A stretch of 32,000 bases of DNA, from NCBI GenBank assembly GCA_963675515.1, contig OY776328.1, positions 900,001 to 932,000 on the forward strand, read 5' to 3'. Shown here in pieces: positions 15,816 to 31,632 of the stretch (the stretch's first letter is position 1; every line of letters begins with the position of its first letter). The notes under the pieces were generated by a model. That model did not search any database. It was not told the origin of the DNA and saw nothing but the letters and a program-made list of their open reading frames with translations. Source of the stretch: Coprobacillaceae bacterium. GTDB taxonomy: Bacteria; Bacillota_I; Bacilli_A; Erysipelotrichales; Coprobacillaceae. The position numbers and the translations under genes were made by a program.

Positions 15816-16973
15816 ATGTCAAAAAGATTTATCTTAAATGAAACAAGCTACCATGGAAGCGGAGCAATCAAGGAGATTGTGAGTGAGGCAGTTTCCCGCC
15901 AATTCAAAAAAGCCCTTATCGTAACTGACAAGGACCTGGTGAAATTCCAGGTAGTCAAAAAAGTGACTGACCTTTTGGATGAAGCAGGACTTGCTTATGA
16001 GATTTTCGACGAGGTAATGGCTAATCCGACTATCGAACTGGTTACCAATGGAGTAGCAGCCTTCAAACAAAGCGGGGCGGACTACATGATCGCCATCGGT
16101 GGCGGATCACCTCAGGACGCAGCAAAAGCGATCGGAATCATCATCAACAATCCGGAATTCGCCGATGTGAGATCTTTGGAAGGTGTCGCACCGACCAAAA
16201 ACAAATGCGTTCCAATCATCGCCGTGGCAACTACAGCCGGAACCGCAGCTGAAACGACAATCAATTATGTCATCACTGACGTCCAAAACAAACGCAAATT
16301 CGTCTGCGTCGATGTCCATGACATCCCAGTAGTGGCGATTGTTGATCCGGACATGATGGCTTCGATGCCAAAAGGACTTACTGCAGCTACTGGTCTTGAT
16401 GCCTTGACTCATGCGATTGAAGGCTATACGACTCTAGGTGCGTGGGAACTGGCTGATACTCTTAACCTTAAAGCGATCGAACTGATTGCCAGAAGCTTGG
16501 AAGCTGCCTGCCAGAACGATTCTAAAGGTCGTGAGGACATGGCTTTGGGTCAATATATGACCGGAATGGCTTTCTCGAACGTGGGACTAGGTGTAGTCCA
16601 TGGTATGGCTCATCCGCTAAGCGCATTTTATGACACGCCTCATGGTATCGCCAATGCTGTGTTGCTTCCTTACGTGATGGAGTACAACAAAGACTTCACT
16701 GGAGCGAAATTCAAGGAAATCGCCAAAGCGATGGGTGTAAGTGGTGTCGAAGCCATGAGCGAAGCTGAATACAAGCAAGCCGCTATCGATGCGGTTGTCA
16801 CCCTGTCTAAAAACTGTGGAATTCCTCAGACCTTGAAGGAAATCGGTGTCAAGGAAGAAGACCTTGAAGCCTTGACTGCAGCGGCCATGGCCGATGTGTG
16901 TACCGGTGGGAATCCTCGTCCTTGCCAAAGCGATGAGATCCTGGCATTATACAATACAGCATATAGCGGATAA
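15816..16973 (+). CDS. fucO: Lactaldehyde reductase / L-1,2-propanediol oxidoreductase (iron-containing ADH)
   Basis: 385 aa with RBS AGGGAGAAG. Fe-ADH motifs: GGGSPQDAAKA and GVVHGMAHPLSAFYDTPHG. Its position after rhaD fits reduction of the L-lactaldehyde released by RhaD. Confidence 0.85.
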   Translation: MSKRFILNETSYHGSGAIKEIVSEAVSRQFKKALIVTDKDLVKFQVVKKVTDLLDEAGLAYEIFDEVMANPTIELVTNGVAAFKQSGADYMIAIGGGSPQDAAKAIGIIINNPEFADVRSLEGVAPTKNKCVPIIAVATTAGTAAETTINYVITDVQNKRKFVCVDVHDIPVVAIVDPDMMASMPKGLTAATGLDALTHAIEGYTTLGAWELADTLNLKAIELIARSLEAACQNDSKGREDMALGQYMTGMAFSNVGLGVVHGMAHPLSAFYDTPHGIANAVLLPYVMEYNKDFTGAKFKEIAKAMGVSGVEAMSEAEYKQAAIDAVVTLSKNCGIPQTLKEIGVKEEDLEALTAAAMADVCTGGNPRPCQSDEILALYNTAYSG

Positions 16974-17098
16974 TTTCTGCCAAAATTGTCCAAACCTTCC
17001 ATTATAATTTAATCATTCGCAACTAATCCATTATCAATTTTATAACACTAATCCAATAATATAAGACCGTGCCAAGTGCACGGTCTTTTCATTTGGGA
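16479..17098 (+). repeat. Left copy of the ~620-bp direct repeat (intact fucO 3' end, 3' UTR and terminator)
   Basis: Collinear with 26290-26906 from GAACTGATTG to CACGGTCTTT. My hand comparison gives roughly 45 mismatches or indels in about 620 nt. An extra 9-mer, TTAACCTTA, is shared at 16462 and 26262. Confidence 0.85.
17063..17089 (+). terminator. fucO rho-independent terminator
   Basis: AAGACCGTGC-CAAG-TGCACGGTCTTTT: a GC-rich stem followed by a T-run. Confidence 0.7.
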
Positions 17099-17229
17099 AT
17101 TATTCACTAAGTGTCAATCCATCGTACAAAATCCAGATAAGGTAAGCCTGTTTGTTTAAATAAGCATATATGATTATCAAGTGAGCCGGTCAATTGGCGG
17201 AATCCAATTATCTCCTTGTCAATAACTTG

Positions 17230-17274
17230 TTGATGTCAAGTATACTTGATATCAATAAGTTTCTTCGGTATGAT
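17230..17274 (+). promoter_or_regulatory. Sigma-A-type promoter overlapped by a 26-bp palindromic operator
   Basis: The palindrome TTGATGTCAAGTATACTTGATATCAA (17230-17255) has 24 of 26 positions symmetric. The -35 TTGATA (17246-17251), a 17-nt spacer, and the -10 TATGAT (17269-17274) lie upstream of the 99-aa ORF. Confidence 0.4.
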
Positions 17275-17313: not shown

Positions 17314-17613
17314 ATGTTTAGTCACATGGATGAAATTGAATTATTACAATATCTAAAAGCTGTCAGAATAACATATTACTTCACGTTGACGTTAGAAGTA
17401 ATTGCTTTCATATATTCTATACCCTGTTTAAACGAGTACTCAAATTTGATATTGCTCTTTATTTTGTCGCAACGTCTTCTTGTTACCATTGTTGTTGAAT
17501 ATTACAAAGTAAAGGCAGGTAAGAAAATGAGTAAAATACGTTTTGTCGCTGGTTGCATATTGATGATTGCTATAATGTTATTAATAATAAAATTGTCCTT
17601 AGTTCCCGGGTAG
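17314..17613 (+). CDS. Hypothetical small membrane protein (about 3 TM segments)
   Basis: 99 aa with a very good RBS (AGGAGG, 8 nt from the ATG). It has hydrophobic segments and a lysine-rich loop. I recognise no family. Confidence 0.5.
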   Translation: MFSHMDEIELLQYLKAVRITYYFTLTLEVIAFIYSIPCLNEYSNLILLFILSQRLLVTIVVEYYKVKAGKKMSKIRFVAGCILMIAIMLLIIKLSLVPG

Positions 17614-17970
17614 CTTTTCTAACCACATCTCAGGTTTTCGGTATCCTGACCGGGCATTCAATACCAAATGCTTTGTAGCAATCATTCGCCTTCTTGAAAG
17701 CTTCTTGAGTGATTGGCTCATATTTTTATCCTCGCTATCATGTCTAAATGATACGCTAAGAGGATGAAAAAGTTAAGGAAAACAGCAATTTTAGAAGGCA
17801 CAAAACACCCTTCTATCGCAACTTTAATTTAGGATAAAACCGAGTAAAAAGTTTACCTAAGTCATGTGGTCATTCAAAAACAACATTCTAAATATTAATC
17901 TTTCAATCTAAATAGACAGAGAATCTGTGAATTAACACGTTACATTTCCATTTTAGAAATAATATTCCTA

Positions 17971-18064
17971 GTTGATGTTGTTGGTGCGAATATTATGATT
18001 TTCGTGCTCATCTGTGGATTTAAAAGAGCTTTTTTGCTTTAATTTTATTATACCAACTGAGAGG
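17971..18064 (+). promoter_or_regulatory. Paralogue of the agrD-like promoter with candidate LytTR direct repeats
   Basis: It aligns without gaps to 31633-31726, about 71 of 94 identical by hand count. Direct repeats TTGGTGC (17981-17987) and TTCGTGC (18001-18007) are 20 bp apart. The -10-like box is TATACC (18049-18054), followed by a GAGAGGGGAG RBS-like run. Confidence 0.45.
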
Positions 18065-18090
18065 GGAGAGTGGTGGAGTAATCAAAAACC

Positions 18091-18258
18091 ATGTTAATGT
18101 TTGAAGTATATTTACTTGTTTCGGCATTTGTTTCATTAATTCTTAAAATGTCACGAGTAATTCCTAGAAAAAATATACTTATTATAGATAAAATGGTATT
18201 GAAATGGCCTGTAGCATTCATTACAGTTGCCTTGAGGATATATATTCACAACAGGTGA
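18091..18258 (+). CDS. Hypothetical 55-aa two-helix hydrophobic peptide downstream of the LytTR-box paralogue
   Basis: ATG at 18091 to TGA at 18256-18258 (MLMFEVYLLVSAFVSLILKMSRVIPRKNILIIDKMVLKWPVAFITVALRIYIHNR). It lacks a well-spaced RBS and overlaps a minus-strand track ORF. The call is weak. Confidence 0.25.
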   Translation: MLMFEVYLLVSAFVSLILKMSRVIPRKNILIIDKMVLKWPVAFITVALRIYIHNR

Positions 18259-18687
18259 ATATATATATTTACTTGGATGGTTGATTATTTTGGACTTTGT
18301 GGACATTATTATGTGTTTCAAAAAATCAAATAAATAATAGTACACGCCAAATAGAGCGTTGGGCCATTCGTGTAGTACGATATCGATAAAATCATTGGCA
18401 CGTAAAAAGGAATACCGCAACTTCTATTTCTGTTTTGGTATTCCTTGTTTCAGTTCTTTGATTTCCTTGCAGGTTTACTGCCGCAAATGTGTTGGCAATA
18501 CTTCATGGTAAGGAAGTAGTTTCTTAATTCTTCTTTATTTTCAGGATCGTTATTCGGTAGTCGCGCTAGAATCCATGATTGAAGAATAAAACACGCACAC
18601 ACCAAACATATTAAAAAAATGAATCTGAAATTATCGAATTCATTTATAGTTGTTTACTAAAATTTAGAAATCAATAGATTTAAAGTG

Positions 18688-18716
18688 TCGACATGAGTTA
18701 ATTTGAGTATTATACT
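18688..18716 (+). promoter_or_regulatory. Sigma-A-type promoter upstream of the small membrane protein and bacteriocin genes
   Basis: TCGACA (18688-18693), a 17-nt spacer, then TATACT (18711-18716). Confidence 0.45.
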
Positions 18717-18812
18717 ACGTAAAGAGTAGCTAACTGAGGTTTAATTGATTATTAGCTGCCTATCTGCTGCATCTAAACGATAAATATTAAATATGTAATT
18801 TAAGAAAGTAAA

Positions 18813-19028
18813 ATGAGGATTCGAATTTTGAAAATTATTATTATGCATTTGCCATTCGTTCTATTTATAATTACTGCGATATTTTTAAGAATAATTAATG
18901 TACCTTTAGTTTATAAGGCTATATTAATTGTGGCGGTAATTATTTACGGTGTGTTTTTTACAAAAAAATCTAGGAGTTATTTTCAAGACATGCTCTCTGG
19001 CAGCAACGTAAATGAGAACAGGAAATAG
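18813..19028 (+). CDS. Small cationic two-TM membrane protein; candidate circular-bacteriocin immunity protein
   Basis: 71 aa with two hydrophobic helices and a basic tail (KKSRSYF...NENRK). It lies immediately upstream of the bacteriocin gene. Size and character match the small immunity proteins of circular bacteriocin clusters. The assignment rests on context only. Confidence 0.45.
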   Translation: MRIRILKIIIMHLPFVLFIITAIFLRIINVPLVYKAILIVAVIIYGVFFTKKSRSYFQDMLSGSNVNENRK

Positions 19029-19134
19029 ATTTATAGAGGGGTTAAAATTATTTCCAATTTGGCCGTTCTATTCTACATTATCATCAAGTTGATGAAGTTA
19101 TAGATATATATAATTAGAAAGGGGGGTGAATCAA

Positions 19135-19368
19135 ATGGGAGCATTGTTATTTTTAGTCGCTGGAACATTAGGGGTCAGCACAACTATTGCAACATCGGTT
19201 GTTAGCATTGTATTGACAGGGTCAACTATTATCACTATTATTTTGGCACTTACTACAATCCTTTCTGCTGGTGCAGATGCAATTTTGACAATGGGATGGA
19301 CAGCTTTCGTTACAACAATTAAGACTATTGCTCAAAAGCAAGGTATTAAATATGCTGTGGCCTGGTAA
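19135..19368 (+). CDS. Circular bacteriocin precursor, circularin A/uberolysin-like (77 aa: ~7-aa leader plus ~70-aa core)
   Basis: The ATG at 19135 lies 8 nt after the RBS AAAGGGGGG. The track start at 19126 is a GTG inside the RBS. The sequence is MGALLFL/VAGTLGVSTTIATSVVSIVLTGSTIITIILALTTILSAGADAILTMGWTAFVTTIKTIAQKQGIKYAVAW. It aligns along its whole length with my recollection of circularin A (MFL/VAGALGVQT...LMTIGWATFKATVQKLAKQSMARAIAY). The C-terminus resembles AS-48 (...AVIAW). DUF95 and ABC ATPase genes lie downstream. Confidence 0.8.
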   Translation: MGALLFLVAGTLGVSTTIATSVVSIVLTGSTIITIILALTTILSAGADAILTMGWTAFVTTIKTIAQKQGIKYAVAW

Positions 19369-19436
19369 CTATTCCAAAAAATCAATAGTCGAATGGCGTG
19401 TGCTACACGCTTTCGGCTATTTTAATTATAATAAAG

Positions 19437-21114
19437 GGTAGTGTCAAATTCGTTATGGAAAAACAGTGATTTTTTCATAATAGAGTTTCGTGTTCGTTTT
19501 GTCGGTAATACCTAAGCGCTTCTTCCATGAGGATGTTCCACTTGTTTGGCATGTTATGAGTTTTCTTCAAACAATCCAATTCAACTGGTGGCTTGTATCC
19601 CAGGGAGGTGTGATTTCTTAGGAAATTGAAATATGTTGTGAACAGACACATGAAATCATTTGCGCCATCCAATGAGTTGAAGCCATTTTTGATCGCGTAG
19701 GTTTCTCCAAATGTTCTATTCAAACGCTCTATTATTTGTTTGGCAGGGCGATGTTCTTTTGATACAGGATCATCATTCGTAAGTCCAATTACTTGAGTCA
19801 CTTTAAAAAATACTCTTTTGATTTGAAAATACTGTTGAGCGGCTTTATATATCGGATTTCCGTCAACAACGATCTCAAAGTCAGTCGGTAACTTTTTGAA
19901 TTTTCTCATGACTGAATAAAAGGCATTTATAGCCGCAAAGGTATCTCTTTTCATGAAAATTCGATACGAAGTTATTATTTTTTTCCTAACATCGCACATG
20001 AAAAATACATAGGCTTTTTTTCCTAAAACTTTGACGTATGTTTCGTCTCCACAATGATACGAGTTCAAATCGTGCTTGTAGTTATCCATCCACGGAAATA
20101 GGAGATGGCTGGCTGCCTGAGCGTAGTTAGCTATTGTTTGATGGGATATTTTGATATCGTGAATCTCGTATAAAACCAAAGCGGTTTTTCTAAGAGACAG
20201 GCCATAATTAACGTAATACGTCAACGCTAGGCCTAAAACATGCTTAGAATTGTGGATTCTGGAGAGATCAACTTTTGATGGTGCTATTTTCAGCTGGATG
20301 CTTTCAAGTTTTTCGATTGAAGCATCGAAGACGCGGGTTATGTAGTGAAGCGAGAATTTAGAAGGATTTACCTTGTATTTCTTTTTATCTTCTTTTGTTA
20401 GTTTCTTCAACTCACTCTTATAGTGAGAACATCTAGAGTTTTGACATTTATAGACATCAAAACCATCACGTGATTTGATCAACGTCAACTTGCGGCCGCA
20501 GTGAGGACACTTGCGGATCAATTGTTGCGAATAACTCTTATTAAGTGAGAAAGTCGTATCACAAACTTTGCACTTAACTTGGGATTTCTTGATTCCGTTG
20601 TTGAAAGTCAGGTATTCATGAGTGGCGCCGCAATGTGGGCAAACAGTATCTTCAGATGGATAGTCTTTGCCTTCATGTCTAAACACCGGTTTCAAAGGTC
20701 GTTTATGTTTGGATTCATACTCATCCCTGGCCTGTTGAAATGGGATGGGGATTAATTGCGGTTCAATAACAGGAAGCGGATGCATTTTGAAACGACGATA
20801 TGGTTCACTCTTACTTGAATCCGTACCATCACTGGGAAGATGCTTTAGCAGGAAACACTCAAATTTGTACAAAAATCTACGAATGATATTTAAAAAATTG
20901 ATTATTAATGATATAATTTTGACCATGGTAACAGTCCTCCTTATTGTGGTTTAGACACTTACAATTATGAGGCTGTTACCTTTTTTTGTAAACAAAATGG
21001 TCAAATTATAGGGTGAAATCCGGGGGAATTTACCTAAATATATAAAAAACCAAGGTAGAATGCGGTTTTCCAGTTAATTATGGTTGTAAATAACTAACTG
21101 GTTTTGACACTACC
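19437..21114 (-). mobile_element. IS6-family-like insertion sequence (long form with Zn-finger N-terminal extension), 1678 bp
   Basis: Perfect 12-bp terminal inverted repeats GGTAGTGTCAAA sit at 19437-19448 and, as complement, at 21103-21114. An 8-bp target duplication TAATAAAG lies at 19429-19436 and 21115-21122. There is a single transposase ORF. Confidence 0.8.
19475..20926 (-). CDS. IS6-family-like DDE transposase with N-terminal zinc-ribbon region
   Basis: 483 aa with RBS AAGGAGG. CxxC pairs: CPHCG...CKVCD and CPHCG...C. The DDE core resembles IS26/IS257-type transposases (GDETYVKVLGKKAYVFFMCD, VVDGNPIY, QIIERLNRTF). Confidence 0.85.
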   Translation of the reverse strand: MVKIISLIINFLNIIRRFLYKFECFLLKHLPSDGTDSSKSEPYRRFKMHPLPVIEPQLIPIPFQQARDEYESKHKRPLKPVFRHEGKDYPSEDTVCPHCGATHEYLTFNNGIKKSQVKCKVCDTTFSLNKSYSQQLIRKCPHCGRKLTLIKSRDGFDVYKCQNSRCSHYKSELKKLTKEDKKKYKVNPSKFSLHYITRVFDASIEKLESIQLKIAPSKVDLSRIHNSKHVLGLALTYYVNYGLSLRKTALVLYEIHDIKISHQTIANYAQAASHLLFPWMDNYKHDLNSYHCGDETYVKVLGKKAYVFFMCDVRKKIITSYRIFMKRDTFAAINAFYSVMRKFKKLPTDFEIVVDGNPIYKAAQQYFQIKRVFFKVTQVIGLTNDDPVSKEHRPAKQIIERLNRTFGETYAIKNGFNSLDGANDFMCLFTTYFNFLRNHTSLGYKPPVELDCLKKTHNMPNKWNILMEEALRYYRQNEHETLL

Positions 21115-21137
21115 TAATAAAGGTAGGTACATTTATT

Positions 21138-22259
21138 ATGAAAATTACTAATTATGTTAAAATGATATGTTTATTTTATAAAAACATATCACTTGAGAAA
21201 ATATCATTTATAGCAAGGAAAATGAAAAGTGATAATCCATTTAGAATGCATTTAATTTGTGAATCATTGAAACTGTTTAGTTCAATTTTGATGATTATCT
21301 TGTTATATAATAATGTATATAGTTATAACACAAATCTATTTGTTTCCATTTTATTGTTAATTTACCTTGTACAAAATTTGTTGATGCTTGTGGGTCCCTG
21401 GAAGATAATAAGAAAGAGATTCAAATATAGTTACTTACGGATGACTGCTTCCGGAGATTGTATGTATCTCCGAAAAGTTATTGTGCTTAACTTTTTTGTT
21501 GAATATTTATTATCACTTCCAATGAATTTGCCTATTTTGATTGGACTTATAGTCACAGCCAATTTGTTTGCGGTGCTGTTAGCCATAAATATTAGTGCGT
21601 TATCATTTCTTTTCTACATAATCAGACATTCTCAAAAGATGTTGAGAAAAGGACCAATGGCTACAATAATGTTTTTTGTTTCACGTATGTGCACATTTTC
21701 AATAGGTTACTTATTTGCATTTATATTATCAAGATTGGTCTTAATATCTAGATCTGGAATAAAAGAATTTGGTTTGTCCGTAATGTACGTTTCATGGGTG
21801 GATAGTATAATTAACGATTCTTTGTTTTCCATAACAAAATATTTTCGTAATATATTATTAAACGTCGATTACTATCTAGTAAACGACTATCGAATTATTA
21901 GTTTTCTATTAATATTGATATTATTTTTCGTATTTATTTCGTTAATGATTTTGAAACGTATTTCTAAAGAAATCATACAAATAACATACAAATTACCAAA
22001 TTGCTATATTAACTCATTAAGTAAATTTGAAAATAAACATGAAATTGATAATCCGTTTTTGTTCAAAGATCTGTGCATTTTCATTGATAAAACAAGGAAA
22101 CTTGAGTACAGTCCAATGGAGTTCCTATTTACGAATGAGCTGTTCTTTTTTATAGGGATAAATATAGTATTTTTACCACTAATCAATAATTATTTTATCT
22201 TTGCGTTTTTATTTGTTTTTGAACTTTTTTTCTTAATTGACCACCAAATACATCCTTAA
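21138..22259 (+). pseudogene. N-terminal part of the IS-disrupted large polytopic membrane protein (CirB/As-48B-like maturation protein)
   Basis: Multi-TM ORF. Its last 9 codons and the stop at 22257-22259 are read from the left end of an IS. Native sequence ends at the TSD at 22224-22231. Confidence 0.7.
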
Positions 22260-22289
22260 ATCTAATAATGATTTACACACCGTTTTTCC

Positions 22290-23433
22290 GGCTATGTTAG
22301 CCCAAAGCAATGCTTTCATAGATGAAGCCTGTTCCAATATAATTTTCTCGCCTAAAATCACAATGGCATTGATAAATATCCACAAAATAATCATGGACGT
22401 CTCTAGCTCTTGTTTCAATCATGTATGCTATGTACGCCAGATATTCATTAAGGTATTTAGAAGATATCCCATTGTGTTTTTTCATATACTTTTCAATTTG
22501 AGAATGCACGTAATTGACGTGATTTATGTGGTAGATTCCTCGCTTTGCCTTGCTTTTTGCTGGAAACGCATAATGGTCGATTTTCAGACTCTCACTTAAT
22601 CTTCGATATACGAATAATCCATCCGTACAAAGCGTTGTTGCTTTTTGAAGGTGTTTCAGATATACAGCGGTTGTCGTTTCGTTATCAAGCGTTGTCGATC
22701 CGATCTTAGCGACCTTGAGTAATATATGGCCGTTCCTGTCAACCGCGCTTGCTATTTGTACGGCATCGGTTATATTTTGATCTTTCTTGTCTCTACGGTT
22801 ACCTTTTCGTCCTCTTTTATAGGGCTTCCTGGGTAATGGTTTTGCCGCCTGTTTACTGTGATTCCCGGAATAACTGATGTTTACGCTCATTTCATCTAAT
22901 TCCACAATCCCGCTAAGCTCAACGTTTTCCATCCTGTGAGCTAGCGCGTTCAATATTTTATGGCGCATGAAAAAACTGCATTTTAACGACACTCCTGCAT
23001 ATTTGGCACAGTCCCTCAAATCTTCGTCATGGCTCATTATTATCAGATACTTAAGCCAGGTTATATAAGAAAGTTTGGTATTCTCCAAAATTGTACCAAC
23101 ATACGGAGTAAAAGTTTTACCGCAATCAATGCATCTAAAACGTTGTGTTTTGTTTTTGTAGTGGCCATCTCGTTTAATATGATGGTGACCGCAACGAGGG
23201 CACGAAATTGAATCGTTGTGTTTGGCTTCTAATGCATCCACAAGGATCTTGGTGTAATCATTTAGAAGTTGACGGTCCTGAATGAAAACAATTAGGGCGT
23301 TTAAATCATCGCTGTTTAAAGTATCCAGTTCATTCTTAATTTTTTCTAATTCCATGGTTATCCCACCTCTTCTCTATTATACACCTAATTCTACAGGAAA
23401 AGTCGATAAACATCTTTATGGGCTAACATAGCC
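22290..23433 (-). mobile_element. IS1595-family-like element A (1144 bp), nested 50 bp inside the left end of element B
   Basis: 14-bp perfect inverted repeats are GGCTATGTTAGCCC (22290-22303) and GGGCTAACATAGCC (23420-23433). The 8-bp target duplication GTTTTTCC lies at 22282-22289 and 23434-23441. Confidence 0.8.
22297..23355 (-). CDS. IS1595-family transposase (zinc ribbon plus ISXO2-like DDE domain)
   Basis: 352 aa with RBS AGAGGTGGG. Zinc ribbon: CPRCGHHHIKRDG...FRCIDCGKTF. It has an ELDEMSV acidic motif. The stop codon lies in the terminal repeat. Confidence 0.85.
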   Translation of the reverse strand: MELEKIKNELDTLNSDDLNALIVFIQDRQLLNDYTKILVDALEAKHNDSISCPRCGHHHIKRDGHYKNKTQRFRCIDCGKTFTPYVGTILENTKLSYITWLKYLIIMSHDEDLRDCAKYAGVSLKCSFFMRHKILNALAHRMENVELSGIVELDEMSVNISYSGNHSKQAAKPLPRKPYKRGRKGNRRDKKDQNITDAVQIASAVDRNGHILLKVAKIGSTTLDNETTTAVYLKHLQKATTLCTDGLFVYRRLSESLKIDHYAFPAKSKAKRGIYHINHVNYVHSQIEKYMKKHNGISSKYLNEYLAYIAYMIETRARDVHDYFVDIYQCHCDFRRENYIGTGFIYESIALG

Positions 23434-23511
23434 GTTTTTCCGCCTTCTAAATTCTTGGTTTTTAGTGATTAGACTTCATCACTTTGGTATGATATTACCG
23501 AGGTGATATCA

Positions 23512-24483
23512 ATGGCAATAAAACTAAAACCGAAGAAAGATTCTTTAATAACTCTTACTAGAAAATATGCTAATGACAATGATGAATGTGTGAAGTTCTT
23601 CTTCACTATCAAGTGGCCTGAAGGGTTCTACTGTGAAAAGTGCGGTTGTACGCATTACTACTTCATTGAAAGTAGAAAAGCTTATCAATGCAAGGAATGC
23701 AAACATCAGCACTATCTGCTAGCAGGTACCATATTCCAGGACACCAAGCTCGAACTTTACAAACTGATCTTAGGCATGTATATTTTCTTTACCTCCAATA
23801 AAGGTGTTTCAGCAATAGAACTCGCAAGTGAACTCGACGTCAATTACAAAACAGCCTTACTTCTTGCCAGAAAATGTCGAATTTTGATGGCTCAAAGCTG
23901 TAGTGAAAAGATGCTCGATAGCTTGTTTTATGAAGCTGACGTCGCATATATTGGATCCAAGAGCAAAGAGAAGAATCGTCAAGGTTGTGCTACAGAGCAA
24001 CAGCCTTTTTTGGTCGTACTTTCGACGGATGCAGAAAATCATTACCCAAAATACATCAAACTTCACCCTATTCCAACCGACAATCAAATCCAGGTAAAAA
24101 ATGTCATCTCGAAGAGCATCAAACTATCAAAGGATCGAAAACTGAATACCGATGGCAAAACTACATTTAACAAAATTGAGGATGAGATTGAGTTGTGTAA
24201 GGAAAAGATCATTTACAAAGAGGATGATCATCGCTTGTATTGGATTAACACTTTGATTGGTGATATCAAAAACAATATCACTGGAATATATCATGGCGTA
24301 GCAAAGCGGGATCTGCCTTTATTCCTAAATGAGCAGGAGTGGCGCTTCAACCACCGTTATACAGGTGCTTATTTCATGGATAAAATAAGAAAATATCTGC
24401 TACTTTCATCGCCGATGCCAAAAAGAAAAATCGTAACGGTTCTTAACTTAGCAGAATCATATTTTTCAAGTACATGTATCTGA
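23512..24483 (+). CDS. IS1595-family transposase of element B
   Basis: The likely start is the ATG at 23512, 6 nt after GAGGTG. The track start at 23503 is the GTG inside that RBS. N-terminal motif: FFFTIKWPEGFYCEKCGCTHYY...YQCKECKHQH...AGTIFQDTKL. It has an EADVAYIG motif. The stop lies inside the right inverted repeat. Confidence 0.8.
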   Translation: MAIKLKPKKDSLITLTRKYANDNDECVKFFFTIKWPEGFYCEKCGCTHYYFIESRKAYQCKECKHQHYLLAGTIFQDTKLELYKLILGMYIFFTSNKGVSAIELASELDVNYKTALLLARKCRILMAQSCSEKMLDSLFYEADVAYIGSKSKEKNRQGCATEQQPFLVVLSTDAENHYPKYIKLHPIPTDNQIQVKNVISKSIKLSKDRKLNTDGKTTFNKIEDEIELCKEKIIYKEDDHRLYWINTLIGDIKNNITGIYHGVAKRDLPLFLNEQEWRFNHRYTGAYFMDKIRKYLLLSSPMPKRKIVTVLNLAESYFSSTCI

Positions 24484-24503
24484 TGGTCAATTAAGCTTTT
24501 TTT

Positions 24504-25107
24504 TATAATTGTAGGAAATTTAAGAATTGTAACATATAGATTTGATGAAGTGTTTAGATTTAGAAGCGATATCGATAAATGGAAAATAATTTACTTGTCG
24601 GGCACTAGAGGAACATATCAGGTCTTGTTTTCAAAATATTATTTGTTGAAGCACCTTGCCAAAATCCCTTGTTTATTTACTTGTTTTGTGTTATTTGTAA
24701 TGTTTTCTGGCTATATGTCAATATATGCTACCATTCTTATTCTAGATATTGCGATCGTCATTGCACTCTTTAGCGATATAGTTAAATGGATACTGAGAAC
24801 AGATTACGATTTTTATTGTATAATTATTAAAAACAAGTACGCAGTTAATGAGGTCTCGATTGAGGATTATTTGGGTTATAATCTGGTATCCAATGCAAAT
24901 AAAACGGTACATAGGTTGTTTTTGTTTGTTACATTTTTTATTTTAATATTATGTTCGTTTTTGAAGTTAATTTCAGGATGGCAATGGGTTATATTTTATG
25001 TTACATATTTAATTGTTTTCGTGATCGATATAAAAGCAAATTCTATGTACTATCCTACGGATAAAATAATTAAAATTGGAAGGAGAGAATTGAATGAGCA
25101 GAATTAA
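24504..25107 (+). pseudogene. C-terminal part of the IS-disrupted CirB/As-48B-like membrane protein
   Basis: The frame is open from the right target duplication. The track ORF 24550-25107 merely starts at an internal GTG. Joining 22231 to 24504 keeps the frame (see findings). Confidence 0.7.
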
Positions 25108-25621
25108 TAGAATAATATCCGGGCATGTCAAATACTTATGTATTTCTATATCTGTTTATATTTTAGGGATAATTTTTGGAATGATTATTTCAGCTGATAC
25201 GAAATTGACTATCAATCCAACTAGTATGCAATTTGTTGAAACATTTGTCCACAATGAAATAATCGGGTTAGGTTTGGTTGTTTTTGGAATTGTAACGTTT
25301 GGATTTTTCAATACTATTTTCCTGGCATACAATGGGTTTTCATTGGGTTTGATAATAATTGGCGTATACAATCAATATGGTATAAGTCCATTGATTTCTG
25401 GTGTTGCCCCACATGCTCTAATTGAAACTTTTGCCATAACAATGTCATGTACGCTAGGATATGAGTCGTTGCGCCTTGTAAAGATGGTAAAAAATAATTT
25501 AGATTCGGATATAAAGGGAAAAATTTATATAAGTGATTTTATAATATTACTAATATCCACTAGTTTGCTATATGTTGTCGGGGCATTCATAGAATCATCA
25601 TTCTCAAATGTAATAATATAA
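25094..25621 (+). CDS. DUF95/SpoIIM-family membrane protein (As-48C/CirC-like)
   Basis: 175 aa with about 4 TM segments and RBS GGAGAG. It overlaps the upstream gene by 14 nt. The conserved PH-x-x-x-E motif (APHALIETFAIT) is typical of SpoIIM/DUF95 proteins found in circular bacteriocin clusters. Confidence 0.7.
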   Translation: MSRINRIISGHVKYLCISISVYILGIIFGMIISADTKLTINPTSMQFVETFVHNEIIGLGLVVFGIVTFGFFNTIFLAYNGFSLGLIIIGVYNQYGISPLISGVAPHALIETFAITMSCTLGYESLRLVKMVKNNLDSDIKGKIYISDFIILLISTSLLYVVGAFIESSFSNVII

Positions 25622-25634
25622 AGGGGGCAAGAAA

Positions 25635-26264
25635 ATGAATGATGTAGTACTTGATATAAAAGAGTTATCATATAGTTATGACGGGAAAAAATTTATCTTA
25701 AAAAATATAAACTTTTTCATTAGAGAAGGAGAGGTGGTAAAACTTAGTGGACCTAACGGGGTTGGCAAATCGACATTTCTTAATATAGTTTCAGGTCTAA
25801 TTGATGATTCCAATTTAGAATATACTGCGGAATTTCAAAATGAGGAGATAATATTTGAAAATATGCGTTCTAGAATATCTTTTGTACTGGATACACCAGA
25901 ATTATTCGATCAACTTACTGGATCTGAAAACATTAAAATGTACAGCTTACTGTTTGAGTGTGATGATGCATATTTTGATAGAGTTCTGGACTGGTGCAAT
26001 AAATATCGTATAATAGATTTTTTAAGCCGTCCGGTAGAAGAGTATTCCTTGGGTACTCGACATAAATTGTTCTTAGCGATACTCATATCGAGAAAAGTTG
26101 ATCTTATTCTTTTAGATGAGCCTTTCAATGCTTTGGATGATTCTAGTAGAAAATACCTTGTTGGGCATATTAATTCTTGTAGAGACTCTTCGTTCATCAT
26201 TGTTTCACATCTTAATCAACCTGGTCTGAAATTGGATAGGGATTTTGAAATGAAATTATATTAA
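25635..26264 (+). CDS. ABC transporter ATP-binding protein (As-48D/CirD-like)
   Basis: 209 aa with RBS AAGGGGG. Walker A: GPNGVGKST. Degenerate signature: YSLGTRHKL. Walker B: LILLDEPFNALD. No cognate permease gene is adjacent. Confidence 0.85.
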   Translation: MNDVVLDIKELSYSYDGKKFILKNINFFIREGEVVKLSGPNGVGKSTFLNIVSGLIDDSNLEYTAEFQNEEIIFENMRSRISFVLDTPELFDQLTGSENIKMYSLLFECDDAYFDRVLDWCNKYRIIDFLSRPVEEYSLGTRHKLFLAILISRKVDLILLDEPFNALDDSSRKYLVGHINSCRDSSFIIVSHLNQPGLKLDRDFEMKLY

Positions 26265-26289
26265 CCTTAGTTCCTAGTCGGCTTTTCTT

Positions 26290-26783
26290 GAACTGATTGT
26301 CAGAAGCTTGGAAGCGGCCTGCCAGAACGATCCTAAGGGTCATGAAGACATGGCTTTGGGTCAATACATGACCAGAATGGCTTTCTCGAACGTGGTACTT
26401 GGTGTGGTCCATGGGGTGGCTCATCCACTAAGCGCATTTATGACACGCCTCATGGCATCGCCGATGCCGTGTTGATTCCTTACGTGATGGAGTACAACAA
26501 AGACTTCACCGGAGCAAAATTCAAGGAAATCGCCAAAGCGATGGGTGTAAGTGGTGTCGAAGCCATGAGCGAAGCTGAGTACAAGCAAGCCGCTATCGAT
26601 GCGGTTGTCACCCTTTCTAAAAACTGTGGAATTCCTTAGACCTTGAAGGAAATCGGTGTCAAGGAAGAAGACCTTGAAGCCTTGATTGAAGCTGCCATGG
26701 CCGATGTGTGCACCGGTGGGAATCCTCGTCCTTGCCAAGGCGACGAGATCCTGGCATTATACAAAACAGCATATAACGGATAA
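26290..26783 (+). pseudogene. Decayed duplicate of the fucO 3' end (last ~165 codons)
   Basis: Collinear with 16479-16973. It has a 1-nt deletion in the T-run at ~26437-26439 (GCATTTATGAC versus GCATTTTATGAC). It has an in-frame TAG at 26637-26639 (CAG in the intact copy). Several substitutions are non-synonymous. There is no 5' part and no start codon. Confidence 0.85.
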
Positions 26784-26906
26784 TTTCTGCCAAAATTGTT
26801 CGAACCTTCCAATATAATTTAATCATTTGCAACTAATCCATTATCTATTTTATAACACTAATCCTATAATATAAGACCGTGCCCTTGGCACGGTCTTTAA
26901 TTTGAA
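26290..26906 (+). repeat. Right copy of the ~620-bp direct repeat (fucO remnant, 3' UTR and terminator copy)
   Basis: See the left copy at 16479-17098. The terminator copy AAGACCGTGCCCTTGGCACGGTCTTT lies at 26873-26898. Confidence 0.85.
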
Positions 26907-27024: not shown

Positions 27025-27591
27025 TCAGGATTGTTCCGGTTTACTTGGTAATAATACCGAATTCAATATTATTGCCGATATCGATAAAAAAGATCCGGTA
27101 GCGGCGTAGCTAGTATATCCGCTTTTTACGGATGATAAAATCAAGATCGTTATAGTATTCAGCGAATACAAAATAAGTTTATTTCGAAGATCATTTCTCT
27201 CAAAAGTCCTTTTCCAAGGATTAATATTTATCAGCACAAATATTGAAAGAAATAGAAAGTACCCCAGGACATAGATCATAATTGAAGGCATAATGGAACT
27301 TAATAACATCCCAATTGACCAAATAATAATACCTAATAAGTAGCATCCAAAAGGTGTTTTGGAATGATACCCGGCATTGTTGGTCCTGAAGACAAGAAAA
27401 CACGATAGCATTATCAGGGATTCCAAAAATCTGCCGCTAAGTATCGAAATGATTAAATAACTAATGGAATTTAACGCAAATAATATTATAGCGGATAAAG
27501 CATATTCTATTTGCTGCATTTTGAATGCGTCATCAATGCAATTTTTTTGGCAAATTTTACGTGAAAGACGTGAAACAAATACGTGCAGCAT
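27025..27591 (-). CDS. agrB: AgrB-family AIP-processing membrane peptidase
   Basis: 188-aa polytopic protein. The motif FRTNNAGYHSKTPFGCY places a His and a Cys 7 residues apart, as in S. aureus AgrB (RRHAHGAHAPSSFWCY). Its ATG lies 1 nt after the kinase stop, with the GAGGTG RBS inside the kinase 3' end. Confidence 0.8.
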   Translation of the reverse strand: MLHVFVSRLSRKICQKNCIDDAFKMQQIEYALSAIILFALNSISYLIISILSGRFLESLIMLSCFLVFRTNNAGYHSKTPFGCYLLGIIIWSIGMLLSSIMPSIMIYVLGYFLFLSIFVLININPWKRTFERNDLRNKLILYSLNTITILILSSVKSGYTSYAATGSFLSISAIILNSVLLPSKPEQS

Positions 27592-27592
27592 T

Positions 27593-28861
27593 TTACACCT
27601 CAGTATTATAAATATAAATATTAATGTCTTGATGGGTTACCGCCGGGATTAGGATGGTAACTTTAAATGTTGCCTCCGTATAACTGACATCAATCATGCC
27701 ATCGTATTTTTTTACTATTCTTCTGATGTTTTTCAAACCGTAACCGTGATTAGCGCCACCCTTTCGTGAAAGGATTTTAGAATCACTTAAAATGATTTTT
27801 CCGTCAAATGTGTTCTCACAAATTATTCTAATCATTTTGTTTGGAAGTAGAGCTATTGATATACGAACCCTTTTATTCTCTGTGGTTTGAGCAGCTTCTA
27901 AAGCATTGGAAGTAATATTTCCAAATAATGAACACAAATCAAAATTATCGATGTGAGAAATGTCCGGAACTTCTAACTCGATATCGAGTGAAACGCCCAA
28001 TAAATTACTTTTACTGATAAAGTCACTTATTGTAGAGTCAAGGTAGATGTTTCCTGTATTCACAACGATAATTTTGTTGTCCATTTCCAATCCGATATTA
28101 TTGATATATTCTTCCAATTGAGTATATGACTTATTCGAGACAAGATGGCCAAGCGTGTTGAGGTGGAATTTTACGTCATGCTTCCATGATTTAAGGTGGT
28201 TGTATGATTTGATTGTTTTGTCATAAAGTTCGGTTCTGAGTTCATTCTCTTTAAGCAATAGGTCGATACTGTATTTTCTCGTTAAGTTTGTAATTAGTAT
28301 TCTTGTTTGAACAAATGAGATTAAATTGACTGCAAAAAGGGAGACAGTAATGACCAACAAATACAGATTATCTGAATTAAACTCTAAATAATGTCTTAAT
28401 ATAAATACCATGGATAAAACTGAAGCCAGTGGCACTACCATATATAAATAAACGTATCTTTCATTATTATCAAGATTGTTTGAATAAGAACCTCTGTTCA
28501 TTTGAAGAGAGATAAGAAACATCAGTATAAATATTATTGTTCTTGTAATAATCATCAGCAGTAATCTGATGAACTCTTCTCCCATCAGCTGCTGGACATC
28601 AATGCTTGAAAACGATGTTACCAGTGATATGGTAATCAATTCGACCAGGTTAAATATCAAAAAAGCAACAACTGGAACTAAAAATTTAAATAGAAAGCGC
28701 CCGCTGTAAAAAATCAGTGAATATAAGATATAAATTAGAAATACCAGCATTACTGCGCTTGAATTGTATTTTTGAATGGTAAACACAGTTAAAATTGCAG
28801 ATATAAAAATGAAAATTGCTGCGTTGATATAACGCATTGGAAGTTCTTTATTTACTAGCAT
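27593..28861 (-). CDS. agrC: AgrC-like (HPK10-type) membrane sensor histidine kinase
   Basis: 422 aa with about 6 N-terminal TM helices. H-box: WKHDVKFHLNTL. N-box: GNITSNALEAA. G-box: NHGYGLKNI. The RBS at 28861 is poor, so the start is uncertain (the alternative is the MRYIN Met). Confidence 0.8.
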   Translation of the reverse strand: MLVNKELPMRYINAAIFIFISAILTVFTIQKYNSSAVMLVFLIYILYSLIFYSGRFLFKFLVPVVAFLIFNLVELITISLVTSFSSIDVQQLMGEEFIRLLLMIITRTIIFILMFLISLQMNRGSYSNNLDNNERYVYLYMVVPLASVLSMVFILRHYLEFNSDNLYLLVITVSLFAVNLISFVQTRILITNLTRKYSIDLLLKENELRTELYDKTIKSYNHLKSWKHDVKFHLNTLGHLVSNKSYTQLEEYINNIGLEMDNKIIVVNTGNIYLDSTISDFISKSNLLGVSLDIELEVPDISHIDNFDLCSLFGNITSNALEAAQTTENKRVRISIALLPNKMIRIICENTFDGKIILSDSKILSRKGGANHGYGLKNIRRIVKKYDGMIDVSYTEATFKVTILIPAVTHQDINIYIYNTEV

Positions 28862-28978
28862 TGAATCAATAAAAAACAGGACGAGAAAGACATCTACTAA
28901 ACCCCCTGTGTTAGGATAGTTGTCGTATAGAACGTTTTAGATTATACTTAGTAAAAAGTATACCAAGGAGACCTAGCC

Positions 28979-29455
28979 ATGACCAAAACTTATACGACAG
29001 AAGAAAAAATCAAGATCATCAGTGAGGTTGAACCACCACTTAACAAGACGGTTGTTCAGATTGCTGAAGAAACCGGCATCAAGACGACTACACTATATTC
29101 TTGGAAAAGAAGATACCTCAAAAATCATTCAGTTTCTAAAATCAAAGAACGCTACAACAAGGAACAACGTTTCCATTTCATCGCTGAATCCGCTCCCCTC
29201 AGTGAACATGAGCTCGGTGAATATTGCCGCAAAAAAGGGATTCATCCTGATGAGTTGGTTAAGTGGAAGAAGGAATTCCTAAGCCCTGAAACCAAGTCCG
29301 ATTCTCTAAAAGATGACCTGCAAGCCGAACGGCAAAAGCGCAAAGAGCTGGAAAAACAATTGCGCCGCAAGGAAAAGGCATTAGCCGAGGCAGCTGCATT
29401 ACTGGTTCTTGAAAAAAAGCTCCAGGCAATTTGGGACGACAACGAGGAAGATTAA
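28979..29455 (+). CDS. IS3-family transposase OrfA (HTH plus leucine-zipper region)
   Basis: 158 aa with RBS AAGGAG. HTH: VVQIAEETGIKTTTLYSWKRRY. It has a coiled-coil C-terminus. The A7G slippery site lies near the 3' end. Confidence 0.85.
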   Translation: MTKTYTTEEKIKIISEVEPPLNKTVVQIAEETGIKTTTLYSWKRRYLKNHSVSKIKERYNKEQRFHFIAESAPLSEHELGEYCRKKGIHPDELVKWKKEFLSPETKSDSLKDDLQAERQKRKELEKQLRRKEKALAEAAALLVLEKKLQAIWDDNEED

Positions 29456-30507
29456 CGACTCTCAAATTGCGCAAAGAAATCGTTACGTTAATCAAAGAAG
29501 CGAACGCCAATGGTGCCCGCTTGATCCCGGCATGCAAGGTGGCAGGGATTTCGAAACGGACGTATGAAAGATGGACTCAAGAAGACAATATTTCCACTGA
29601 TAGGCGTAAAGAACCACGGCTAAATCCTCCAAAGAATAAGCTCAGCAATGAAGAACGCGAAGCTATAATGAGAATAGTTAACAGTCCTGATTATAGGCAA
29701 TTGACACCGGCTGAGATTGTTCCGTTACTGGCTGACAAAGGTATCTATATTGCTTCAGAATCAACCATCTACCGTCTATTAAGAGAGTTGAAACAATTGA
29801 AACATCGCGGCCGTACAGCCCCGAAGCACCACAGACAAGCCACCACCCATATTGCAATCAAACCGAACCAAGTTTGGAGTTGGGACATCACTTGGTTGCA
29901 CCGCAAGGATATCCGAGGAGTTTATTACAAGCTATACATGATAATGGACATCTTCAGCCGCAAAATTGTCGGGTACGAAGTATGGGAGACGGAAAACGCT
30001 GAATATTCCGCAATCCTGATGCAACGCACACTTTTAAGCGAACGAATCAATGGCGAACCGCTGGTCTTGCACTCCGATAACGGTGGTCCGATGAAGGCAG
30101 CTACATTTCTGGGGATGCTCGAGAATCTTGGTGTGCAAAGCTCATTTTCTAGACCGCGGGTAAGCAACGATAATCCATATTCTGAATCGTTGTTTAAGAC
30201 ATTTAAATATATGCCAAAATACCCCACAAGCGGTTTTGAATCACTCACACACGCTAGAAGCTGGGTCAATGAATTTGTACAATGGTACAACGAAATTCAC
30301 TTACACAGCGGAATCAAATACGTGACACCCGCCAGTCGCCATCGAGGGGAAGATGCTGCGATACTGCAAAAAAGGAAAGAAGTTTATGCTGAAGCTAAAA
30401 TGAAAAACCCTGAACGATGGAGTGGATCAGCCAGAGACTGGTCCTGGATTGAAGCAGTTGCCCTAAATCCGACAAAAGAAAGTGAATTATTGATCAACGA
30501 AGTTTAA
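29431..30507 (+). CDS. IS3-family transposase OrfB (rve DDE integrase core), expressed as an OrfAB fusion by -1 frameshifting
   Basis: It lies in frame -1 relative to orfA. DDE core: WSWDITW, LHSDNGGPM, NPYSESLFKTFK. Confidence 0.85.
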   Translation: MGRQRGRLTTLKLRKEIVTLIKEANANGARLIPACKVAGISKRTYERWTQEDNISTDRRKEPRLNPPKNKLSNEEREAIMRIVNSPDYRQLTPAEIVPLLADKGIYIASESTIYRLLRELKQLKHRGRTAPKHHRQATTHIAIKPNQVWSWDITWLHRKDIRGVYYKLYMIMDIFSRKIVGYEVWETENAEYSAILMQRTLLSERINGEPLVLHSDNGGPMKAATFLGMLENLGVQSSFSRPRVSNDNPYSESLFKTFKYMPKYPTSGFESLTHARSWVNEFVQWYNEIHLHSGIKYVTPASRHRGEDAAILQKRKEVYAEAKMKNPERWSGSARDWSWIEAVALNPTKESELLINEV

Positions 30508-30610
30508 CAAGCGCAACTCAAGAATTTGCATAATTAATATGAAAAAAATGCGTCAACTATATTGACAAATACCGTAAATTGATAATAATCTCAGACATTA
30601 AATACATGTG

Positions 30611-31318
30611 CTATCCTCCAAAAAATTTCAAAAACAGATTTTGTACATCTTTCATTTTTGATCTCCCTACCGGAATTGAGTCTCCGTTAGAAATTTGAAC
30701 ATACTGACTTTTAAACGAAGCCACATAGTTCAAATTTACAATGTATGACCTATGTATTCTAAACATATCATGGTCAATCAACAAATCTTCAATTTTTGAA
30801 ATTGGAATATTGATTTGCTTTTCTTCTTCTATCATATGAAATATGCAATTATGTTTATCTGACTCAACATACATAATGGATTTTGTATCTATCGTATAGT
30901 AACCGTTTGATGCGTCTAAACGAATTAATCTGTCGATGTTTTTTTGAAGAGAATTAGCAATCTGATCTAATGTTTTATTTAATCTAGTCTGGTTGACGGG
31001 CTTTACAATATAATCCAGCGCAGACACCTCATATCCATTGATTGCAAACTGGCTGTGTGAAGTAATAAAACATATTATGATATTCTTATTGTTTTTCCTG
31101 AGCTCTTTAGCAAATTCAATACCGGAAATTTCAGGAATTTCTATATCGAGTAGTGCCACATCGCAGTCCATTGCTTCTCCAGGAATCATGTATGATACTT
31201 TATTGGTAACGGTAAATTCTACAATGTTATTTGTGTTTTTTGCCCAATTGTCGATATATCCAATTAAAATGTCCCGGTCTATTTTAGAATCTTCAGCGAT
31301 GAAAAAACTAATGTTCAT
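30611..31318 (-). CDS. agrA: LytTR-family response regulator (AgrA-like)
   Basis: Start moved to MNISFFIAEDSK with RBS GAGAGGGG. The track start at 31447 adds 43 implausible residues. The receiver domain has DVALLDIEIP, and the C-terminal LytTR domain has IMYVESDKHNCIF...FRIHRSYIVNL. Confidence 0.85.
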   Translation of the reverse strand: MNISFFIAEDSKIDRDILIGYIDNWAKNTNNIVEFTVTNKVSYMIPGEAMDCDVALLDIEIPEISGIEFAKELRKNNKNIIICFITSHSQFAINGYEVSALDYIVKPVNQTRLNKTLDQIANSLQKNIDRLIRLDASNGYYTIDTKSIMYVESDKHNCIFHMIEEEKQINIPISKIEDLLIDHDMFRIHRSYIVNLNYVASFKSQYVQISNGDSIPVGRSKMKDVQNLFLKFFGG

Positions 31319-31632
31319 GTAATTATCCCCTCTCTCATTTTGTTTCAATTCTACATGATTGTAACATATATTTTGCAGTTTGTATAATTGTTCCGAACAT
31401 AAATCCGTCAATATAAAGGATACAGGAGAGTATTTTTGTATAAACATAATACATTACTTAATTAATCATCAAATACAGGTGAGCACGGTATTGGATTATT
31501 GTCGATTTTGAAAAATCACCAAATGTCGCGCATTTTGGATGTAGTAATATTTCTTCGTTACTGACTATGAACTCCAAGATGTATCTGTTGGCTAATTAAG
31601 AAACATTATTTTTTTGTTCAATTATTTTCTTT

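Follow-up and report, generated by a model that had tools for sequence, protein, structure and literature searches.

A predicted circular bacteriocin operon, closest to thermocin 458 and interrupted by insertion sequences, in a Coprobacillaceae genome

Introduction

Does this genome carry an intact set of genes for a head-to-tail cyclized bacteriocin, or one that has fallen silent, and if so by what means and how recently? The question is raised by a 32,000-nt stretch of DNA from a Coprobacillaceae bacterium (Erysipelotrichales; GenBank assembly GCA_963675515.1, contig OY776328.1, positions 900,001 to 932,000), hereafter called the window, in which an earlier note, made from the sequence alone, had recognized a circular bacteriocin gene set broken by insertion sequences (ISs). 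With a probability of about 0.88, we find that the locus is a compact orfI-A-B-C-D operon for a subgroup I head-to-tail cyclized bacteriocin of the circularin A/uberolysin family, closest to thermocin 458, which was recently inactivated by ISs and is carried on a horizontally acquired insert of low GC content.

Results

Gene content of the cluster

Five plus-strand genes, orfI, A, B, C, and D in that order, lie within positions 18688-26264 of the window (Table 1). The minimal cir/as-48-type gene content claimed in the earlier note is confirmed for all five, with profile matches for A, C, and D. The open reading frames (ORFs) of the region encode 71, 80/77, 373, 185, 175, and 209 amino acids (aa), and three transposase genes break up the cluster ORFs. 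Genes B and C overlap by 14 nt and a spacer of 13 nt separates C from D, which suggests translational coupling, a frequent feature of circular bacteriocin clusters (PMC7132975). Minimal clusters of this kind comprise five to seven genes that are necessary and sufficient, with cirBCD-type proteins serving maturation and secretion and a small cationic hydrophobic protein conferring immunity (PMC10028692, PMC6131525); a gene for a SpoIIM/DUF95 protein is stated to be a cluster requirement (PMC6131525). As had been claimed, neither an ATP-binding cassette (ABC) permease nor a second transporter is present in the window, and Rfam gave no match anywhere in its 32 kb.

Precursor A and its peptide

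Gene A scores 63.8 bits against the circular bacteriocin family PF09221 (curated cut-off, 23.6) and 71.4 bits against the circularin A/uberolysin family TIGR03651 (cut-off, 30.7), covering positions 1-73 of the 73 in the latter model. We prefer ATG 19135 as its likely start over the GTG 19126 (80-aa form) given previously, because the GTG falls within the ribosome-binding site AAAGGGGGG; public data likewise record a 77-aa product, although an exact look-up of this product returned no contig. The boundary between leader and core was set by alignment with the peptide sequences in the supplement of PMC7132975, giving a predicted leader of 7 aa, MGALLFL, and a predicted core of 70 residues, VAGTLGVSTTIATSVVSIVLTGSTIITIILALTTILSAGADAILTMGWTAFVTTIKTIAQKQGIKYAVAW (VAGTLGV...KYAVAW), with a calculated isoelectric point (pI) of 9.5 and a circular average mass of ~7091 Da. 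The same mass calculation returns the published 6933 Da for thermocin 458 (PMC7132975).

The core shows 65.7% identity with thermocin 458 and 38.6% with circularin A, and its ends align with those of both peptides (V1-A2...W70 here and in thermocin 458, V1-A2...Y69 in circularin A). Its hydrophobic Val-Ala N terminus and aromatic C terminus are the ligation-site residues of the family; in circularin A, Val1, Ala2, and Tyr69 accept only conservative changes, and the leader residue F-2 matters (PMC10028692). Relatives of the peptide are few: apart from a 100% self-match, we observe a metagenomic group at 83% and three sequences at 59-67%, including one from Alicyclobacillus kakegawensis. Among the papers searched, none was identified that describes a thermocin-458-like circular bacteriocin from Erysipelotrichales.

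The interrupted membrane protein B

The two fragments of B (373 aa and 185 aa) match no Pfam or NCBIfam family. When the two parts are joined, with the IS between them (IS-b, see below) and one copy of its target duplication removed, the result is a 1698-nt ORF free of stop codons, whose 565 aa are exactly the length of the protein reconstructed earlier. Residues 2-565 of this rebuilt B align to the 571-aa B of an IS-free relative (L005) at 38% identity (E 4e-126). In a seven-sequence alignment with six IS-free B proteins, the junction ...FVFELFF/IIVGNLR... (slash, point of joining) shows no gap, and it adjoins the invariant R372 and F378 inside a conserved helical region. According to a 21-sequence family alignment, none of the invariant residues (G212, E334, K409) and none of the near-invariant ones have been lost from rebuilt B. 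The AlphaFold2 model is all-helical and polytopic, with a predicted local distance difference test score (pLDDT) of 85.9 and a predicted template modeling score (pTM) of 0.80.

When 1.84 billion cluster representatives were searched exhaustively with HMMER, only 23 relatives of B were returned at E <= 1e-3, the window's own two fragments among them, and no intact B paralogue from this genome. Over its full length, B matches (E 2.8e-47) a protein cluster represented by P0024, which includes a 539-aa "hypothetical protein" of Geobacillus stearothermophilus and G. kaustophilus, and it is homologous to the B proteins of the Geobacillus, Alicyclobacillus, and Anoxybacillus clusters. The membrane proteins and the ATPase are not placed in unrelated systems by these searches: A, C, and D group with the circular bacteriocin system, and B with its thermocin-458-type counterpart in Geobacillus. 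Other searches with B added little. The contigs of species-representative genomes, a set that lacks the source genome and any close relative, gave 28 pattern matches, none of which was confirmed; a word-indexed protein search returned only the window's own 373-aa fragment; metagenome contigs scanned with the B alignment yielded only relatives of 24-25% identity; and viral contigs yielded no match.

C, D, and the candidate immunity gene

The profile check suggested for the predicted DUF95 protein turned out positive, with C reaching 67.3 bits against PF01944 (cut-off, 26.9). In the ABC ATPase D, the sequence YSLG stands where the signature motif LSGGQ is canonical, and BacD/As-48D of plasmid pPD1 (L090, 11365-12024) has YSTG at the same position; the YSxG signature may be a hallmark of circular bacteriocin D ATPases. 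The right-hand boundary of the insert, a repeat copy described below, starts 25 bp past the D stop codon. Truncation of D by this boundary was considered and rejected, with residues 1-206 of 209 aligning to the 209-aa D of L005 (50% identity).

The orfI product, with a pI of 10.7 and a net charge of ~+7.6, matched no Pfam or NCBIfam family in profile scans. A homologue lies directly upstream of A in L004-L008 (38-41% identity) and on the Anoxybacillus plasmid (30%), and by analogy with characterized clusters orfI is the candidate gene for immunity to the bacteriocin.

A strong hairpin behind the structural gene

The hairpin after A had been described as weak, from the pairing GCGTGT/ACACGC. 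These letters are only the tip of a 17-bp stem with a folding free energy of -20.5 kcal/mol, against a mean of -8.6 kcal/mol for shuffled sequences (z -4.9; 0 of 200 shuffles fold as well); its short T-run hid it from a simple terminator scan. Hairpins of equal strength are present in the A-B spacer of L005, L002, L003, and L001 (z -3.5 to -7.0), so a structured element 3' of the structural gene is a conserved feature of the subfamily. The position after the structural gene agrees with the attenuator proposed earlier; attenuation fits, as an interpretation, and the hairpin is a candidate terminator/attenuator that could serve either transcript attenuation or 3'-end stabilization.

Insertion sequences and the state of the cluster

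IS ends were defined by terminal inverted repeats and target duplications in the sequence, and transposases by Pfam/NCBIfam cut-offs. The three ISs that the earlier note had counted are present, each with a perfect 8-bp duplication, but the cluster itself was hit only twice, by IS-a in the A-B spacer and by IS-b in B at codon 365. The third element, IS-c, is nested within IS-b, whose sequence makes up both the IS-c duplication and the DNA on either side of it; the point of entry is in the left end of IS-b, between the inverted repeat and the transposase gene of that element.

IS-a, which entered the spacer 15 nt past the hairpin and ~23 nt before the B start codon, encodes a transposase of twice the usual length that scores 34 bits against PF13610 (DDE_Tnp_IS240; cut-off, 27) and 82.8 bits, under the cut-off of 125, against NF033587 (IS6); the element is best described as IS6-like. 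An outward-facing TTGACA is located in its right inverted repeat and, paired with TACATT 18 nt on, gives a hybrid site that resembles a promoter (10/12) and immediately precedes the B start. IS-b and IS-c both belong to the IS1595 family, for which 8 bp is the usual target-duplication length, and their transposases share only 24% identity, over the zinc ribbon, and are unrelated beyond it. Variants of the IS-a transposase 98.3-99.8% identical to it occur elsewhere in the same 2.88-Mb genome, as do IS-c variants of ~97% identity, which means that these elements are active or were so until recently; relatives of IS-c occur in metagenome-assembled genomes (MAGs) of Erysipelotrichaceae. As read from the nesting, IS-b went into B and IS-c then into IS-b, with IS-a independent of both. 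A composite transposon was rejected, as the three ISs differ in kind and do not bracket the cluster.

The claim of recent inactivation as opposed to degradation holds: the duplications are perfect, B is restored seamlessly with its conserved residues, C and D are full length, and near-identical IS-a variants are present in the genome. Because every other part is intact, we regard the knock-out as evolutionarily recent.

IS-free relatives and known systems

Contigs carrying relatives of A (L001-L008 and L089) have no IS in the cluster and all show the same order, structural gene included, and not the different order without a structural gene that the earlier note had named as evidence against its reading. 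L004-L008 (ENA assemblies ERZ272792xx, uncultured) consist of a 61-aa ORF, A, B (571 aa), C (175 aa), and D (204-209 aa); L001, a metagenomic locus from a high-GC actinobacterium, has two small ORFs, A, B (564 aa), C, and D, followed by recF; L002, also metagenomic, has A, B (553 aa), C, and D; L003, of A. kakegawensis, has A, B (549 aa), C, and D; and L089, an Anoxybacillus amylolyticus plasmid and the only related cluster in the plasmid collection, has a 57-aa ORF, A, B, C, and D. No permease adjoins D in any of them, and to lack an ABC permease is usual in this subfamily, as it is in cirABCDE.

Identity between the window and L004-L008 is 80% for A, 37-38% for B, 55% for C, and 50% for D. 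Unlike the window, L004-L008 carry the cluster elsewhere on the chromosome, behind the ATP synthase operon, and continue after D (e.g., L005, 13376-18940) with a 31-aa ORF, two LytTR regulators, a histidine kinase, a YidC-like insertase, and an ABC-2 permease/ATPase pair, none of which the window has. These genes may form a regulated module for accessory immunity and export.

Among named systems, thermocin 458 of G. stearothermophilus DSM 458, listed as a confirmed circular bacteriocin (PMC7132975), shares with the window a 70-residue core that starts with VAGTLGVS and ends with A(I/V)AW, as well as a B homologue in Geobacillus (539 aa). However, the two cores differ at one-third of their residues and the B proteins share only 23% identity; thermocin 458 comes from a thermophilic member of the Bacillaceae and not from a mesophilic gut member of the Erysipelotrichales, and it is the window's cluster that is IS disrupted. 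Circularin A (cirABCDE, Clostridium beijerinckii) belongs to the same TIGR03651 family and combines a precursor, a large membrane protein, a DUF95 protein, an ATPase, and a small immunity protein with no separate permease; its leader ends in F-L (MFL), its core starts with V-A, and its last residue is aromatic. It differs in core length (69 residues versus 70), in leader length (3 versus 7), and in having the small membrane-protein gene after D, where here it lies upstream of A. AS-48/Bac21 on Enterococcus faecalis pPD1 (NZ_KT290268.1) has the order A-B-C...D, with a 556-aa B in the same position, and D is 30% identical to BacD/As-48D (E 1e-25), with YSxG in both, and C a weak match (E 1e-5). 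In contrast to the window, it has a long leader, an immunity gene after D, and the extra EFGH transporter.

The insert and its neighborhood

Upstream of the cluster lies a rhamnose-utilization operon whose last gene is lactaldehyde reductase-like, in a region that is syntenic with a Coprobacillaceae MAG at ~75% nucleotide identity; together with the IS-c relatives, this places the host in the Erysipelotrichales. The 3' end of this gene and its terminator recur behind D, forming a 615-bp direct repeat whose copies are 91-96% identical (32 of 495 coding positions differ). GC content is 29.5% in the cluster and ~30% in the 9.2 kb between the repeat copies, versus 45% in the adjacent operon, and for this reason we place the cluster on a horizontally acquired insert, in which we saw no integrase.

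Two copies of a 24-nt motif, CCTTAGTTCC..G..GCTTTTCT, are present in the same orientation, where chance would give 0 matches. The right copy lies between the D stop codon and the gene-fragment repeat, and the motif may be what is left of the end of an element or of an att-like site. Near the left repeat copy, a 38-bp near-perfect palindrome is followed by a strong ribosome-binding site and an ORF for a 99-aa membrane protein, which terminates at the 24-nt motif; no family matches this ORF, and related clusters lack a counterpart. The next ~1.1 kb are AT rich and hold nothing but short, broken ORFs, most of them on the minus strand; Pfam searches of stop-to-stop fragments from 17.0-18.8 kb gave no family, a plasmid blastn search returned nothing, and this stretch is probably decayed cargo of the insert.

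Convergent with the cluster, on the minus strand, is an agr-like quorum-sensing module (27025-31447), with an IS3-family element between its genes. An AgrD-like ORF was sought after the AgrB gene and none was found. The LytTR and kinase genes after D in the IS-free relatives are only distantly related to this module (25% identity).

Table 1. Coordinates of the features in the window
Feature	Position	Strand	Details
Lactaldehyde reductase-like gene	15816-16973		last gene of rhamnose-utilization operon
Left repeat copy	16479-17093	+	3' end of intact lactaldehyde reductase-like gene plus terminator
Palindrome	17224-17261		38 bp, near perfect
Membrane-protein ORF	17314-17613		99 aa
24-nt motif copies	17597-17620, 26265-26288		direct orientation
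AT-rich stretch	17600-18700	mostly -	short broken ORFs
Promoter-like site	18688-18716	+	TCGACA-17-TATACT, 10/12 consensus match
orfI	18813-19028	+	small cationic membrane protein, 71 aa, two hydrophobic helices
A	19135-19368	+	circular bacteriocin precursor, 77 aa; PF09221, TIGR03651
Stem-loop after A	19384-19421	+	17-bp stem, then UUUAAUU
IS-a target duplication	19429-19436, 21115-21122		TAATAAAG, 8 bp, perfect
IS-a	19437-21114	-	1678 bp, A-B spacer; 12-bp inverted repeats GGTAGTGTCAAA
IS-a transposase	19475-20926	-	483 aa, DDE plus N-terminal zinc-ribbon extension
Hybrid promoter-like site	21104-21133		IS-a right end
B, 5' part	21138-22231	+	codons 1-364 plus 2 nt; 373-aa ORF 21138-22259
IS-b target duplication	22224-22231, 24496-24503		CTTTTTTT, 8 bp, perfect
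IS-b	22232-24495	+	IS1595 family, 1112 bp without guest; 22-nt inverted repeats, 91% complementary
IS-c target duplication	22282-22289, 23434-23441		GTTTTTCC, 8 bp, perfect
IS-c	22290-23433	-	IS1595 family, 1144 bp; ~26-nt inverted repeats
IS-c transposase	22297-23355	-	NF033547, 134.6 bits (cut-off, 75)
IS-b transposase	23503/23512-24483	+	NF033547, 111.1 bits (cut-off, 75)
B, 3' part	24504-25107	+	185-aa ORF 24550-25107
C	25094-25621	+	SpoIIM/DUF95 membrane protein, 175 aa; PF01944
D	25635-26264	+	ABC ATPase, 209 aa; PF00005, 82.8 bits
Right repeat copy	26290-26897	+	5'-truncated fragment plus terminator; 1-bp deletion (frameshift), TAG stop
AgrB gene	27025-27591	-	agr-like module
GHKL histidine kinase gene	27593-28861	-	agr-like module
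IS3-family element	~28909-30567		orfA 28979-29455, orfB 29431-30507
LytTR response regulator gene	30611-31447	-	agr-like module

Discussion

Proposed working of the ancestral operon

By comparison with characterized relatives, the intact ancestor would have had a single promoter for orfI and A, and the hairpin after A would let only part of the transcripts run on into B-C-D. The membrane proteins B and C, together with the ATPase D, would cleave off the MGALLFL leader, link Val1 with Trp70, and secrete the resulting ring of 70 residues, with the small cationic OrfI guarding the producer. At present, IS-a, with its antisense transposase gene, separates A from B, and IS-b splits B. The genes of minimal clusters (as-48ABCC1DD1, cirABCDE, and others) are reported to be indispensable (PMC6131525); because B is essential in characterized systems, the strain is expected to be a non-producer, which may still express orfI-A.

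Several points weigh against the interpretation of the locus as a recently inactivated circular bacteriocin operon. What is said of production, cyclization, immunity, and transcript structure is prediction throughout. The promoter is called from a consensus match that is not significant alone, with 54 promoter-like matches found in the region, a modest excess over the 38 +/- 6 expected from shuffles. A Foldseek comparison of the B model with the PDB gave nothing below E = 1, the best template modeling score (TM-score) being 0.22/0.39, to the ABC-2 permease NosY. The earlier description of B as As-48B-like stands for size, position, and topology, but sequence homology is only marginal: the 21-sequence B profile aligns with BacB/As-48B of pPD1 at an hhalign E of 0.014 (probability, 3.2%; collinear, 282-423 versus 286-424), and tblastn of B against plasmids gave no match to AS-48-type plasmids. 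Finally, the search for an IS-free allele that the earlier note had suggested led to IS-free loci of the same order, but to none of the same lineage among genome representatives, JGI metagenomes, viral contigs, and a collection of 15 billion proteins. The view that nothing else is broken therefore depends on relatives in which A is only 80% and B 38% identical.

Selection, decay, or residual function

Were the insertions selected? Both hits lie downstream of the terminator-like hairpin and leave orfI, A, and the upstream region untouched, so the lineage could have become an immune non-producer that sheds the cost of production and keeps immunity, possibly reversibly by precise IS excision. The close peptide relatives in metagenomes mean that producers may co-occur, and loss of production with retained immunity has been discussed for such clusters (PMC7132975). 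Nevertheless, both the immunity role and the expression of orfI are conjectural, two or three insertions fit chance equally well in a genome rich in active ISs, and no other gene of the cluster offers nearly as large a target as B. We consider selection unlikely. We find it more doubtful still that the insertions form a selected, possibly reversible "immune cheater" switch, with promoter, orfI, A, and hairpin intact and the costly B-C-D uncoupled and broken, and that, in addition, the cluster rides an integrase-less 9.2-kb module inserting by recombination at the 3' end of the lactaldehyde reductase gene, an event that would explain both the 615-bp repeat and the 24-nt motif. About one-fifth of such clusters are associated with mobile elements, and about one-fourth look incomplete (PMC7132975).

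An old, decaying pseudogene cluster instead of a recent knock-out is improbable. The right repeat copy has indeed decayed (6.5% divergence, a frameshift, and a stop), the DNA at 17.6-18.7 kb is ORF poor and unassignable, and one IS had time to receive another. Within the cluster, however, none of orfI, A, C, and D is shortened, B can be rebuilt without frameshift or stop and with every conserved residue kept, and all three target duplications are perfect. We attach very little weight to the idea that the cluster still functions, with B supplied in trans or working as two fragments. Both fragments are called as ORFs (373 aa and 160 aa), and the IS-b transposase gene points toward the 3' part of B, C, and D, and could drive them; yet the cluster representatives contain no other B-like protein of this genome, the break falls inside the conserved helical region by R372 and F378, and the genes of minimal clusters are indispensable in characterized systems, as noted above. 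That the locus is no bacteriocin system at all, but a SpoIIM/ABC membrane module beside a chance hydrophobic small ORF, can practically be dismissed: SpoIIM and ABC ATPase domains are generic and B has no family, but A lies far above the cut-offs of two independent circular bacteriocin models, and the five-gene synteny is kept across four phyla-level GC backgrounds.

Meaning for genome mining and for the family

The significance of the inactivated operon is modest, since both the kind of system and the mode of inactivation are already well known. What is new is a thermocin-458-like peptide (66% identity to the nearest named one) from a gut member of the Erysipelotrichales that could be resurrected from exact coordinates. 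Because neither Pfam nor NCBIfam offers a model for B, and B is split here into two "hypothetical" ORFs, genome mining by rules of cluster completeness would misjudge this locus. For the family, B represents a small uncharacterized group with a confident predicted fold that has no solved counterpart, which leaves the cyclization machinery a structural blank. For the organism, the locus represents a clean natural knock-out, in which bacteriocin production would have been lost via IS expansion.

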